The notes: generated by a model not told the origin, from the sequence alone. 64,000 nt of DNA from Escherichia coli (GCF_036507355.1 NZ_AP027878.1), one strand, 5' to 3'; counted from the first letter of the stretch, positions 44,481 to 48,029 are shown. A program made the numbers and translations.

Positions 44481-45182
44481 TTATTCTGATTCTCGCTCAA
44501 AAAATGAGCTGATAAGGGGAAGCCAATCCTCTGACACTTCGCGAGGTCGCGGTTTGCCGTGGAAAAAGATTATTCGGCAGTCTTTTGGTAATGCCCCATT
44601 CCCCCTGGAGTAACGCGCGCTCGCATATTTTGAACCAGGTTCCACAACATCGGCCTTGTAACTTACAAACCATCCTGGATACAGATCCTGAAATGCTGGT
44701 GTATCATCGCCCATAACCTTTCGTAAGAACCCCTGGTCACCCCAACACTCAGTAGTGACACAACGAGAAATCCAACCTTCCGGATCTTGCCAGAATGAAC
44801 TCCAGATATGCGCTTTAACACTATTTGGTATCCACAGGGCACCGCTGCCACGATATTGTGGATGGTAAAAATCCCTAAGCATGGTGAAGCTGGTTGGTGG
44901 ATGCTCTAGGATTGGGCGTATATCACCGGCAATAACCGTGTCCAAATCCAGATAGAACAGATCATCGGTTATATCCGGTCGGAACAACTCGATTTTCGCC
45001 CACCAGCCACGGCACTTTTGCCACTGGTTGATCAATGGGACAACTTTGACGCCAGGTACATGTAAACGCTTCAGGTCTGTCAGGCAAATAATTTCATAGC
45101 CTTTTGGCAGTTGATTAACCAGCCACTGCACATCGGAAGCGTTATAGTCACCACCAGAGCGAAAAACTAAAGCAATCTTCAT
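44481..45182 (-). CDS. Hypothetical protein with DxD-like glycosyltransferase features
   Basis: 233 aa; [13 protein letters not shown] and [12 protein letters not shown] resemble nucleotide-sugar transferase motifs (motif-level inference). Confidence 0.45.
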
Positions 45183-45871
45183 GCTGCACCATCACCTTTC
45201 ACTTTCATCAATGTCAGGTTTCCGCAAAATACGGCACCAGTGTCGATATACTGCTGATTCCAGAATGTCTTCGGGCTTTTCACCGGAGTGTGACCAAAGA
45301 TAAAACGATCTGCGCCCGAAATTTCGCCACCAATATCATCCATCGAATCACTGATACGCTCGCGCGCCCAGACAACGTTGAAAAGCGGCACCTCCTTACC
45401 GAATTGGTATTCATTATCCGGATAGTCGGCATGGGCTATAACGATAGTTTCTTGCCCGGTGTTCAGCTCAATGATATAGGGCAGACGCTTTACCAGCTCC
45501 ACCAGCGCCCAGGCTAATATTTCCTGATCAGTGTCCAGCATGAAGAACCATTGTCCGCCATTCATTAGCCAGTTATTCACGTTGCCATCTGGACTTAACG
45601 CATCAATCATCAGCCGCTCATGGTTCCCCATCACTGCCCTGAACCAGGGCATCTGCAATAGTTCCAGACATTCGACATTTTCAGTACCGCGATCGATAAG
45701 GTCGCCGACCGATATCAGTAAATCCTGCGCCGGGTCAAAATCCACACGATGGAGTTCGGACATCAGTCTGGTGTAGCAACCATGCAGATCACCAACAACC
45801 CAGACATTCCTGTATTTGGTACCGTCGATACGGTGATAAATTGTGGGTGCCATCATGTATTCTTCAGCCAT
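45179..45871 (-). CDS. ppp: Ser/Thr protein phosphatase, lambda-PPase family
   Basis: 230 aa; GDLHG...GDLIDRG...GNHE metallophosphatase motifs. Confidence 0.8.
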
Positions 45872-46479
45872 TCTTTAAGAGTCATCTGCGGAATACCTCC
45901 CATTTTCCCGCATGAAACAACGTCAATCTGTTCACGCGCAGACTGGAATAACAAAGGCAGGTGACTTAGATTTTTTGGCGTGCCGCCGGAGTGAACGCGT
46001 AGTTCTTGCGTAGCGTCAACGCCCACCAGAGCTACATGTTTGAATCCGATATGGAAAGCCAGGTTCAGAGCACCATATGCACTATTGCCGCTGGCAATTT
46101 CATTCTCATCTTCGCAAAGGCCGAAATGTGCGGACCAGCGCCACGCCCACCACTCGGGAGAATTCGTATTTTTTGGCTCCATGCCGCGTTCAGCCACACG
46201 ACGGAAGCACAGAACGCCATCTCTGACTTCACGTTCTTTAACATCGGGTAGTGCCATGCAATAACAAACACCACGGCGACGGCGGCCACGACCAACGCGC
46301 CGCATATTGTCTGGGGATGGATCAAGGGTGAAAAAATAAGAAGCGCGGTTAAGCCAGTCGATGGCCCCATTGACCGCTATAATCGGCACTCCGCGCGGCG
46401 CAACAAAGTTTGCGGCGCTTGGGCCACTGCCGACGATAATAACGCGATCACTGCCTCTAAATTTATTCTTGGGAAACAT
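45853..46479 (-). CDS. GSGPS-motif protein, paralogue 2 (MptE-like/DUF115-like)
   Basis: 208 aa; [11 protein letters not shown]...IIAVNGA near N-terminus; paralogous to the upstream ORF. Confidence 0.45.
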
Positions 46480-47039
46480 TGAATTGCACTGCTCCTACTT
46501 GCATTCAAAATATGTAAATCTGCGTGTTTTTTGCGGGTATCCAGGAACTGCTGTTGCCATTTTGAAATAGACACCTGCGTTGGATTCCGTAGTGCTTGAG
46601 GGTGCGCGCCATGCCAATGAAGGCCGTTTTGCAGAGAACAGTCATAGCCGACTAATACCACTACTTCAGCCCCTGATTCAGCAGCCAGACTGATAGCCTG
46701 CGCGCCGCTATTTACCCCTTCCGCCGGTCCACAATATCGCCTGTACTCCAACGAAAATGATTTCGCCGCCGCCAGGTTGGCTGTCACTTTGCGGAATCTC
46801 CCTCCCGGTATGGTGGATCCGTATTGCTTCCACCATGACAAATCACCGGCGTATAAGGCATAAATGTCATCGAACATCTGCCAGGAATTGTTAACCGCGA
46901 TGATTGAACAGCCAGTTTTTTCTATAGCAGCACAGTCCTCACGAGTGAGTGACGGACCGCTACCGACACAAAAAACAGTCCTAGTCGCCCTGGGTGGTAT
47001 GTTCATTCTCAGCTGCAAATTCAGCCTCCAGGCGAGCAT
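46377..47039 (-). CDS. GSGPS-motif protein, paralogue 1 (MptE-like/DUF115-like)
   Basis: 220-aa ORF; TVFCVGSGPSL...IIAVNNS; 3' end overlaps next gene by about 100 bp. Confidence 0.45.
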   Translation of the reverse strand: MLAWRLNLQLRMNIPPRATRTVFCVGSGPSLTREDCAAIEKTGCSIIAVNNSWQMFDDIYALYAGDLSWWKQYGSTIPGGRFRKVTANLAAAKSFSLEYRRYCGPAEGVNSGAQAISLAAESGAEVVVLVGYDCSLQNGLHWHGAHPQALRNPTQVSISKWQQQFLDTRKKHADLHILNASRSSAIQCFPRINLEAVIALLSSAVAQAPQTLLRRAECRL

Positions 47040-47202
47040 TCATTTCAGCGATTACAGGGTCCACTACAGCATCTGTTTCCTGTTCATTACGCGGCATGAC
47101 CGATGCCAGCGACTCATAATTAACCTTGGATGACACGATTATTCTCCCGATGTTAAAGTGCACTACCACAAAGAGCGCACATGCACTAATTAATTTATTA
47201 TT

Positions 47203-47781
47203 TTAAGCAGCATGCAACCACTTATCGCCGTTCAATACATGCTCAATAGCCTCACCCTTTTTAAGACTTATGTATTCCAGGATGGCGGTAATCGCTTGTT
47301 CTGCACCGTACGCAAGAACGACGTAGTAACCTTCCTCTCTAAGCCTGCGCATCCAGGCGATCTGCTCTTTCGTCGGGGCTTTACCATTTGGTTCTTTAAG
47401 CTCAATTCGCATGCCGTGATAAATACCGCATGCTTTATCGAGACTCATGTCCGGATAACCTTTTTTCTGCCCTTCAGCCTTCATTTTCCCGGCGGTTGCT
47501 TTTGAACGTTTCCCTCCGTTAGGCGTTGCATGCAACAGCTCATAGATGTCAGGGTGCTTGCGTTCGAAGTAATCAAAAATGAAAACCTGCTCGAAGTGCT
47601 CGCAATTTCCGTCGCGCAGGTCTGGGTTCTTTGCCAGTGCTGCAAGTGCCTTCGCATGTGGAGAAACTTCTTTTACCGGCGCAAGCGATAAGAATGGATC
47701 CTTTTTGGTTTTTGGCCTGGACCGCCCCTTATTTCGACGCTCACTAAAAGCCTGAAACTCTTCCTCAGTAAAGCGCAACAT
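47203..47781 (-). CDS. VRR-NUC-like nuclease domain protein
   Basis: 192 aa; ...ATPNGGKRSKATAGKMKAEGQKKGYPD... resembles the VRR-NUC core. Confidence 0.5.
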   Translation of the reverse strand: MLRFTEEEFQAFSERRNKGRSRPKTKKDPFLSLAPVKEVSPHAKALAALAKNPDLRDGNCEHFEQVFIFDYFERKHPDIYELLHATPNGGKRSKATAGKMKAEGQKKGYPDMSLDKACGIYHGMRIELKEPNGKAPTKEQIAWMRRLREEGYYVVLAYGAEQAITAILEYISLKKGEAIEHVLNGDKWLHAA

Positions 47782-47783
47782 AA

Positions 47784-48029
47784 TCAGTCAAATCCTGCCG
47801 GTCGCATGCCATATTTACGCTGTTTTGCGGCCTGCTCTTCCCTGTGCCATTGCGCACATTCAGCGTCACAATAAATGCCTGATTCAATCGATTCATTGCA
47901 GTAACGACACTTCCCTGTAAATACCTGGCTCACGACCTGTGCCTGCTTTCTGATGTTATCGATGGCCATGTCTTTGAGAGCTTCTAACTGATTCATGCTC
48001 AGCTCTGCATCATCAACACGTTCTGCCAA
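47784..48029 (-). CDS. TraR/DksA-like C4 zinc-finger protein
   Basis: 81 aa; CRYCNESIESGIYCDAECAQW four-cysteine motif. Confidence 0.5.
   Translation of the reverse strand: MAERVDDAELSMNQLEALKDMAIDNIRKQAQVVSQVFTGKCRYCNESIESGIYCDAECAQWHREEQAAKQRKYGMRPAGFD

Follow-up and report, generated by a model that had tools for sequence, protein, structure and literature searches.

A stretch of 64,000 nucleotides of Escherichia coli DNA (GCF_036507355.1, NZ_AP027878.1), to which we refer in its entirety as the window, carries a P1-like element in which the co-directional, minus-strand genes annotated pmgL, pmgM, pmgN, pmgO, pmgP, ppp and pmgQ occupy positions 44481-48029. Our subject is a conserved cassette within this block, composed of pmgO, pmgP and pmgQ. 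Over the 4.5 kb around pmgL-pmgQ, identity to phage P1 (AF234172/NC_005856) and P1-like phage-plasmids is 99.6%. Because PmgQ is 100% identical to its counterparts in P7 and SJ46 and 97.9% identical to that of reference P1, while PmgO and PmgP are 100% identical to those of reference P1, the window appears by sequence to be a P1-like mosaic, nearest to vB_EcoM-Ro157c2YLVW and distinct from the reference strain. An initial annotation, made by a model from the sequence alone, had described six co-directional open reading frames (ORFs) here, and these coincide on the minus strand with the annotated pmgL, pmgM, pmgO, pmgP, ppp and pmgQ; the deposited annotation gives seven genes, and pmgN, which overlaps the start of pmgO, had been overlooked. 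The genes and rough labels for them are already in the databases, and that raw observation is hence not new; the labels 'alpha-2,3-sialyltransferase', 'norphogenetic protein' and 'phosphohydrolase' are probably wrong.

The first two cassette members, pmgO (46377..47039, minus strand) and pmgP (45853..46479, minus strand), encode paralogues, whose family alignments match each other at 99.5% (E = 8e-23) in hhalign. Both proteins have the three-dimensional fold of the MptE-like/DUF115 family (Pfam PF01973), as had been proposed from an N-terminal VGSGPS...AVN motif, and several of their homologues carry precomputed PF01973 matches. This motif, like the FYLDLD motif noticed in PmgQ, is present and lies in conserved columns of its family, and in general the motif-level domain calls hold up in profile and structure tests. 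The conserved columns of PmgO are G28/P29/S30, V49 and an invariant N50. In structure comparisons the top match of the PmgO-type fold is the glycosyltransferase Maf.

The lead to a closer characterised relative came from a homologue, P0051, with a faint precomputed match to the Pfam family PF27901 'WaaZ_KDO_III'. WaaZ of E. coli K-12 was used to collect and align the WaaZ family for hhalign, and against this alignment the PmgP family matched at 99.2% (E = 8.3e-20) and the PmgO family at 97.9% (E = 4.5e-13). A hidden Markov model (HMM) of WaaZ matches the PmgP-like ORFs of cassette loci at E = 1e-9 to 1e-23, and the WaaZ profile retrieves Maf (E = 1.2e-5) and Cst-II (about 1e-3) from the PDB. 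The relationship becomes decisive only with the family alignment, the single WaaZ sequence giving weak matches of 17.8% and 10% probability to the phage families. Family profiles were likewise required for the PDB, where single-sequence searches with PmgO, PmgP, PmgQ and Dbn (discussed below) returned nothing significant, and a search of AFDB50 yielded only the query protein's own family and generic DUF115 proteins, with no WaaZ among the best 50 matches. The GxGPS, AVN and (N/T)SG...G(Y/I)D motifs line up with those of Cst-II, and PmgO has no significant sequence match to the GT42 enzymes Cst-I and Cst-II. PmgO and PmgP have a WaaZ/Maf/sialyltransferase-like (MptE-like) fold and WaaZ is their closest characterised relative, PmgP being the nearer of the two; PmgO can be described as a WaaZ-related putative ulosonic-acid transferase, the predicted substrate being 3-deoxy-D-manno-octulosonate (Kdo). 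WaaZ itself is described in reviews as the Kdo transferase without which the inner core of lipopolysaccharide (LPS) does not receive its third Kdo (PMC6358824).

WaaZ (RfaZ; E. coli K-12, Salmonella) resembles the phage proteins in its N-terminal SGPS...AVNG motif, its central ...A...LG...(V/I)...G.D motif, its basic isoelectric point and its Gram-negative distribution. It is, however, a single protein of 283 residues encoded in the waa operon. The phage proteins, by contrast, are 180-208 residues long (220 for PmgO of P1) and occur obligatorily as a pair, sometimes as a fusion; aligning them to WaaZ leaves about 70 of its residues unmatched. A GT8-like gene always accompanies them, and they are located in late or head gene blocks of phages; an invariant H-W-H cluster of PmgO also stands against R-F-Y in WaaZ. 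Maf (motility-associated factor, a flagellin glycosyltransferase; DUF115/MptE-like; PDB 5mu5) and the GT42 sialyltransferases Cst-I and Cst-II have their nucleotide-binding motifs in common with PmgO and PmgP. They use nine-carbon ulosonic acids activated with cytidine monophosphate (CMP), and the target of Maf is a protein that becomes part of a large assembly. On the other hand, Maf exceeds 600 residues and has extra domains, whereas PmgO has 220 residues and aligns to 163 of the 632 residues of 5mu5, and the sequence similarity of Maf and the Cst enzymes to PmgO is below threshold (E about 0.1).

One podovirus-like contig encodes a natural PmgO-PmgP fusion of 376 residues (P0051; L003:10001-11131), and in P1 the genes share 103 nucleotides (46377-46479), read in different frames; for these reasons paired action of PmgO and PmgP is probable. 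Within the overlap lies PmgP's conserved GSGPS motif, and shorter gene calls for PmgP (176-178 residues; P0095 and the gene of L005) are therefore probably wrong. In two AFDB entries, W9T3Z2 and X6D610, a PmgO-like domain is fused to a Methyltransf_11-type domain, echoing the methyltransferase genes of some cassettes. A mention of 'DUF115' in a paper on the BREX system proved to be DUF1156 and MAFFT, and this lead was dropped.

The third cassette member, pmgQ (44481..45182, minus strand), encodes a protein with a GT8-type GT-A fold that includes the DxD motif and a C-terminal H..G..(K/R)P motif. Throughout its family D79-L80-D81 is invariant, and the family has invariant WW.K and SYK motifs of its own. 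No Pfam family, Glyco_transf_8 included, matches PmgQ even at E = 10. Its best structural relatives include Gat1 (the Skp1 alpha-galactosyltransferase), GlyE and glycogenin, and it is 13-16% identical to GT8 enzymes; at 233 residues it is shorter than these three, LgtC and WaaJ/WaaO. Comparison of the PmgQ profile with WaaJ/WaaO confirms the GT8 motifs, with DxD and H..G..(K/R)P aligned to WaaJ, and is uninformative on the acceptor. By such sequence features PmgQ is a predicted GT8-like retaining hexosyltransferase.

About 5 kb from the cassette and adjoining ban lies dbn (52974..53972, minus strand), which the initial annotation had singled out, at these very positions, as a further glycosyltransferase-like gene. 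Its product of 332 residues has a GT-B (Glycos_transf_1) C-terminal domain, the nucleotide-sugar-binding Rossmann domain, matched by Pfam PF00534 over residues 229-315 (i-Evalue 2.3e-5). A homologue of Dbn (E = 1e-93) lies between PmgP and PmgQ in coliphage IME392, and it is this order, PmgO-PmgP-Dbn-PmgQ, that ties dbn to the cassette and bears out the earlier suggestion; Dbn is probably an accessory transferase of the cassette that is encoded elsewhere in P1.

To survey the cassette, loci were gathered from exact-protein look-ups, a phage collection, GTDB genomes and two IMG/VR scans, and were searched with HMMs of the PmgO, PmgP and PmgQ families and with the P1 neighbour proteins. The first IMG/VR scan returned P1 copies only and the genome scan, with strict patterns, 12 loci; the second IMG/VR scan, seeded with a distant member, supplied the useful sample, comprising 39 non-P1-like loci, defined by a PmgP less than 75% identical to that of P1. 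PmgQ accompanies PmgP in every one of them (39/39) and PmgO in 34, most of the others having too little upstream sequence to judge. A methyltransferase gene is present in 20 of these loci and an extra GT-A-like gene in four, and the trio recurs over 14 more loci from genomes and phages. The conserved unit is a cassette of PmgO, PmgP and PmgQ. The slot between PmgP and PmgQ varies, being filled by Ppp in P1, by Dbn in IME392 and by a methyltransferase of about 187 residues in several lineages, or standing empty; among 41 P1-like loci dbn itself fell within the flank in 27, and it was found in one of the 39 others. Co-occurrence thus upholds one part of the grouping made in the initial annotation, the trio being linked and joined by Dbn in IME392, and not the rest, as Ppp, PmgL and PmgM are not linked to it.

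The cassette occurs in myo-, sipho- and podovirus-type genomes, in jumbo phages and in phage-plasmids. Its guanine-plus-cytosine content follows that of its own genome, from 0.37 to 0.62, and it is therefore a long-term resident and not a recent import. The named hosts are all Gram-negative, belonging to the Gamma- and Alphaproteobacteria with one member of the Bacteroidota, a distribution that fits a donor of the Kdo type.

The genomic position of the cassette follows a recurrent pattern. In two siphovirus-type loci (L136, L157) the major head gene, the cassette and the head-tail adaptor gene follow one another in that order; in four more (L110, L134, L131, L111) the cassette is flanked by head-tail adaptor, Neck1 or tail terminator genes, and in three (L006, L094, L097) it adjoins capsid, head-morphogenesis or Neck1 genes. 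A PmgO homologue lies amid head and neck genes in the Pseudomonas phages D3 and PAJU2, and the annotators of P7 chose the names hdmA-D, for 'head morphogenesis'. On the chromosome of Enterobacteriaceae bacterium UBA7338 (L099:1281-12870) the genes of the trio are interspersed with those of an inverse-autotransporter invasin (NCBIfam NF040980, E = 1.5e-156) and two further large repeat proteins; the invasin gene is followed immediately downstream, on its own strand, by the PmgO homologue.

In the window, the control of the cassette can be read from predicted regulatory features, which are those of the deposited AF234172/P7 annotation; their sequences were checked here and their activity is predicted. 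A search of the whole window with the C1 operator consensus ATTGCTCTAATAAATTT, allowing at most 3 mismatches, gave 15 operator-like sites against 0.42 expected by chance. Upstream of pmgL lies O26 (formerly Op82; 48087..48103, plus strand; ATTGCACTAATAATTTT), annotated in AF234172, which serves the divergent gene 26 operon and pmgL. The predicted late promoter LPpmgL (48118..48136, minus strand; AF234172 annotation) stands upstream of pmgL, back to back with LP26. Although O26 had been called weak, its 2 mismatches place it closer to the consensus than OpmgRb (44414-44430) and OpmgRa (44463-44479), with 3 each. The description of the latter pair as an operator/terminator/operator structure was fair: 15-bp inverted operator arms surround an 11-bp hairpin, followed on the transcribed strand by a U-run (44412..44482), and the RNA fold of this stretch has an energy of -29.1 kcal/mol (z = -11). 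The structure ends the pmgQ transcript and overlaps PpmgR; its operators control the next operon, pmgR-pmgS, and do not mark a boundary of the block. An internal operator, Oppp (formerly Op83; Op(hdm) in P7; 47180..47196, plus strand; CATGCACTAATTAATTT), has 4 mismatches and was not retrieved by the consensus search since these exceed the 3 allowed. It lies just downstream of the predicted promoter PpmgN (47209-47235), itself within the 3' end of pmgM, and the P7 annotators start the 'hdm' operon at this site. With Oppp, PpmgN and LPpmgL annotated, the single operator-bounded operon of the initial annotation has to be given up: the region combines, mosaic-like, at least 2 transcription units, both C1-repressed and additionally served by a late promoter. 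Elsewhere in the window, two C1-operator matches on opposite strands, with 0 and 2 mismatches, overlap at 57938-57965 in a bivalent operator-like site.

Beyond the observed folds, homologies, gene linkage and genomic positions, we infer donors, an acceptor and a benefit to the phage as follows. Judging by sequence kinship, what we have found looks like phage-encoded glycosylation, and the earlier suggestion that derepression turns on a glycosylation pathway was reasonable. The reading that we favour, tentatively and with rather less than even confidence, is that of a lytic-phase glycan-building cassette acting on a virion protein, probably one of the head. During lytic growth, a CMP-activated donor, in E. 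coli K-12 presumably CMP-Kdo, would supply the ulosonic acid that PmgO and PmgP transfer; PmgQ, alone or together with Dbn, would add a hexose from a uridine diphosphate (UDP)-sugar, and a short glycan would result. In other phages this glycan may be further tailored by methyltransferases encoded in the slot that ppp holds in P1. CMP-Kdo is the suggested donor because the characterised transferases of this fold (Maf, GT42, GT29) use CMP-ulosonates, WaaZ is reported to add Kdo, and CMP-Kdo is the one such donor that K-12 is known to make, CMP-sialic, CMP-pseudaminic and CMP-legionaminic acid not being known from it. The label 'alpha-2,3-sialyltransferase' is for that reason unlikely to be literal.

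The acceptor would most likely be a newly made virion protein, and probably a head protein, because the cassette sits within the head gene block in unrelated phages. Such an acceptor is also favoured by the expression of the cassette, which coincides in site and timing with that of the virion proteins. Two hints point to a protein in general: the best structural matches include enzymes that build glycans on proteins (Maf, Gat1, GlyE, glycogenin), and the trio of the UBA7338 chromosome is linked to an adhesin. The broader proposition, that many Gram-negative phages including P1 coat their heads with a short Kdo-containing glycan that the cassette makes in the cytoplasm from host LPS precursors (CMP-Kdo, UDP-hexose), is more doubtful.

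Several facts weigh against the virion-glycan reading. Pfam PF01973 matches the P1 proteins only below threshold, with best i-Evalues of 0.12 (PmgO) and 1.1 (PmgP), and the MptE-like fold also covers pyrophosphokinases, so that the transferase chemistry is a prediction. The closest characterised relative, WaaZ, acts on LPS and not on protein, and its own activity rests on genetics as reviewed (PMC6358824). The position within head genes is not universal: in L003 and L005 the cassette follows the lysis genes, in L100 it lies amid DNA polymerase and ribonucleotide reductase genes, and in IME392 it is close to the genome end. Genes inserted in late operons can, moreover, be morons expressed in lysogens. 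Finally, the main text of the P1 virion proteome paper mentions neither these genes nor glycosylation (PMC9024508).

Published phenotypes bear on the same question. In-frame deletions of pmgL, pmgM, pmgN, pmgO, pmgP, pmgQ, ppp, dbn and pap plate normally, and on hosts with EcoA, EcoB and EcoK, all of which are type I systems, their efficiency of plating equals that of the parent (PMC9024508). In a CRISPR interference (CRISPRi) screen all of these genes were non-essential save pmgN, whose knock-down lowered the efficiency of plating to 1.4e-2 and scored as essential, a conflict with the deletion that the authors note (PMC10695390). Polarity cannot explain this effect, because the downstream genes are all non-essential. 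Since neither the single deletions nor CRISPRi reveal a plating defect for the cassette, any benefit that it brings would have to be conditional, which also tells against the virion-glycan reading.

The main alternative, to which we give a lower probability, is remodelling of the LPS core, in which PmgO and PmgP would add extra Kdo to the inner core of LPS produced in the lytic phase and PmgQ and Dbn would add hexoses. The outer-core receptor of P1 would thereby be changed or truncated, so that fewer progeny would be lost to debris or vesicles, or superinfection would be limited. The kinship with WaaZ speaks directly for this, as do the families of the partner enzymes, GT8 and GT4-type being those of the E. 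coli core transferases WaaO/WaaJ and WaaG/WaaB, with the motif alignment of PmgQ to WaaJ given above. Raised WaaZ reportedly gives third-Kdo glycoforms that are without the terminal GlcIII-HepIV disaccharide (PMC6358824), and the outer core's terminal glucose is reportedly recognised by the S fibre of P1 (bioRxiv 10.1101/2022.07.24.501295). The exclusively Gram-negative named hosts agree with it too, and so does the basic character that PmgO and PmgP share with WaaZ, although isoelectric points fail to separate an LPS from a protein acceptor. Timing argues the other way: enzymes made after derepression would presumably alter only the LPS made later and leave most of the receptor unchanged. Known phage LPS-modifying genes are expressed in lysogens, unlike the P1 cassette behind its C1 operators. 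Nor does remodelling of LPS explain why the cassette recurs between the genes for the major head protein and the head-tail adaptor; PmgO and PmgP are about 70 residues shorter in alignment than WaaZ, and none of the LPS families of NCBIfam matches.

The membership of pyrophosphokinases in the MptE-like fold raises a second alternative, in which PmgO and PmgP would act on small molecules as pyrophosphokinases, in the manner of archaeal MptE or thiamine pyrophosphokinase, or would be nucleotide-binding, SteA-like regulators, and the link with PmgQ would mark a metabolite pathway. We consider it very improbable, as by sequence profile the WaaZ family (E = 1e-13 to 1e-20) is a far stronger match than any kinase, the PDB profile searches list no kinase, the top structural match is the glycosyltransferase Maf, and the constant partners are glycosyltransferases and methyltransferases. 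About as improbable is the proposal of the initial annotation, a DNA-directed or general modification and anti-defence system that unites the glycosyltransferases with Ppp, the VRR-NUC protein and the zinc finger; although the P1 genes are co-directional and C1-controlled, the L100 cassette lies amid DNA polymerase and ribonucleotide reductase genes, and LPS-enzyme-related phage glycosyltransferases are known to put Kdo, heptose and hexoses on 5-hydroxymethylcytosine (5hmC) (bioRxiv 10.1101/2023.12.21.572611), Ppp and PmgN occur in none of the 39 non-P1-like loci, PmgL and PmgM occur in P1-like elements only, plating of the deletions on EcoA, EcoB and EcoK hosts is unchanged (PMC9024508), and none of the eight proteins has a match among the PADLOC families.

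Phage 5hmC glycosylation (T4 alpha/beta-GT; 5mYOX-linked) resembles the P1-type cassette in its sequential, LPS-enzyme-related glycosyltransferases, some of which install Kdo, heptose or hexose. Such pathways, however, need a C5-methyltransferase with a 5mYOX/TET enzyme, or a hydroxymethylase, and use JGT-like GT-A or T4 beta-GT-like GT-B enzymes (bioRxiv 10.1101/2023.12.21.572611). In the four loci with Pfam lists (L003, L005, L006 and a JGI contig) no such hydroxymethyl machinery, and specifically no TET/JBP or thymidylate-synthase-like family, was seen near the cassette; L005 has a C5-methyltransferase, with no dioxygenase among its called genes. We know of no hydroxymethyl pyrimidines made by P1. 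DNA glycosylation with anti-restriction is unlikely, given that these loci showed no hydroxymethylcytosine machinery around the cassette and that the outcome of the restriction tests was negative. A further parallel is with the mycobacteriophages, in which, reportedly (Freeman et al. 2023, Cell Host Microbe), phage-encoded glycosyltransferases glycosylate the virions, with little evidence said to exist in other phages. There too, sets of phage-encoded glycosyltransferases occur with or without methyltransferases, and the P1 cassette is proposed to act likewise on capsid or tail proteins of the same cell; the mycobacteriophage system belongs, however, to phages of Actinobacteria and employs other enzyme families.

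In the literature that we searched, no paper assigns a function to these genes, and we did not find the link to WaaZ, the strict linkage of the trio, the PmgO-PmgP fusion, the variable tailoring slot or the preference for head genes reported. If the virion-glycan reading is true, virion glycosylation would extend beyond the actinobacteriophages, with a sugar known mainly from LPS and capsules, and the glycan could shield particles from antibodies, host surface traps or defence sensors; glycosylated virions would also be relevant to phage therapy, through antibody recognition and clearance. If LPS is edited instead, the cassette would represent a lytic-phase mechanism of receptor editing. P1 is among the phages most used in genetics, and these genes have been named for a 'putative morphogenetic function' since its annotation; they now constitute a defined, testable three-gene unit with variable tailoring genes, for which P1 deletion mutants already exist (PMC9024508).

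The remaining genes of the block, pmgL, pmgM, pmgN and ppp, are neighbours and not components of the cassette. By profile, ppp (45179..45871, minus strand) encodes a full-length Ser/Thr metallophosphatase of the lambda type (NinI/PrpA/PrpB). It matches NCBIfam NF008516/PRK11439 over residues 8-224 with E = 3.3e-81 and 272 bits (equivalog cut-off 326), being the sole protein with an NCBIfam match, and PHROG 246 'NinI-like' with E = 5e-113. Found in all 41 P1-like loci and in none of the 39 non-P1-like ones, ppp fills the variable slot in the P1/P7 lineage only. It looks like an insertion in that lineage, because five distant P1-like elements (90-102 kb) keep the order pmgL-pmgM-O-P-Q-pmgR-pmgS without ppp and pmgN. 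These five elements are also the only ones among the 39 loci to have PmgL and PmgM, and the merging of phosphatase, VRR-NUC protein, zinc finger and glycosyltransferases into one system is contradicted by this distribution.

The 192-residue product of pmgM (47203..47781, minus strand) is a VRR-NUC nuclease-like protein, matched by Pfam VRR_NUC (PF08774) over residues 100-160 (i-Evalue 4.1e-4) and by PHROG 5702 'Holliday junction resolvase' (E = 4.8e-27). The 81-residue product of pmgL (47784..48029, minus strand) matches PHROG 54 'DksA-like zinc-finger protein' (E = 1.6e-12) and no Pfam family, zf-dskA_traR included; its cysteines are spaced CxxC-x10-CxxxC, the canonical DksA/TraR spacing being CxxC-x17-CxxC. 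The annotated 51-residue ORF pmgN (46981..47136, minus strand) belongs to PHROG 2350 and is confined to the P1/P7 lineage, none of the 39 non-P1-like loci having it.

A second variant of the cassette has a PmgO homologue with a protein of 275-296 residues, of unassigned family, and a protein of about 205 residues, and is without PmgP and PmgQ. It was found in PAJU2 (L101:3474-5417), D3 (L103:3501-6789) and the Klebsiella jumbo phage Eowyn (L102:3498-5583). The protein of about 205 residues is annotated as a methyltransferase in D3, and the PmgO homologues of PAJU2 (ORF010) and Eowyn are labelled 'structural protein'. The thought that the 275-296-residue partner in these three phages might be heptosyltransferase-like received no support from NCBIfam and PDB searches. 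Right after the cassette in two other loci (L114:7603-8280, L142:7406-8137) are proteins of about 230 residues that share an N-terminal NxGD motif together with GGG and SSYHG motifs; that of L114 has no match in PHROG, and a likeness to polysaccharide pyruvyl transferases is only suspected.

Outside the block, the product of pap (42337-42843), labelled 'acid phosphatase', has an N-terminal DIDGT motif, which we take to resemble that of HAD-family phosphatases, and has no NCBIfam match. The coordinates of pap are offset by one base relative to the P1 reference, which implies that this variant has an indel somewhere between pmgS and pap.

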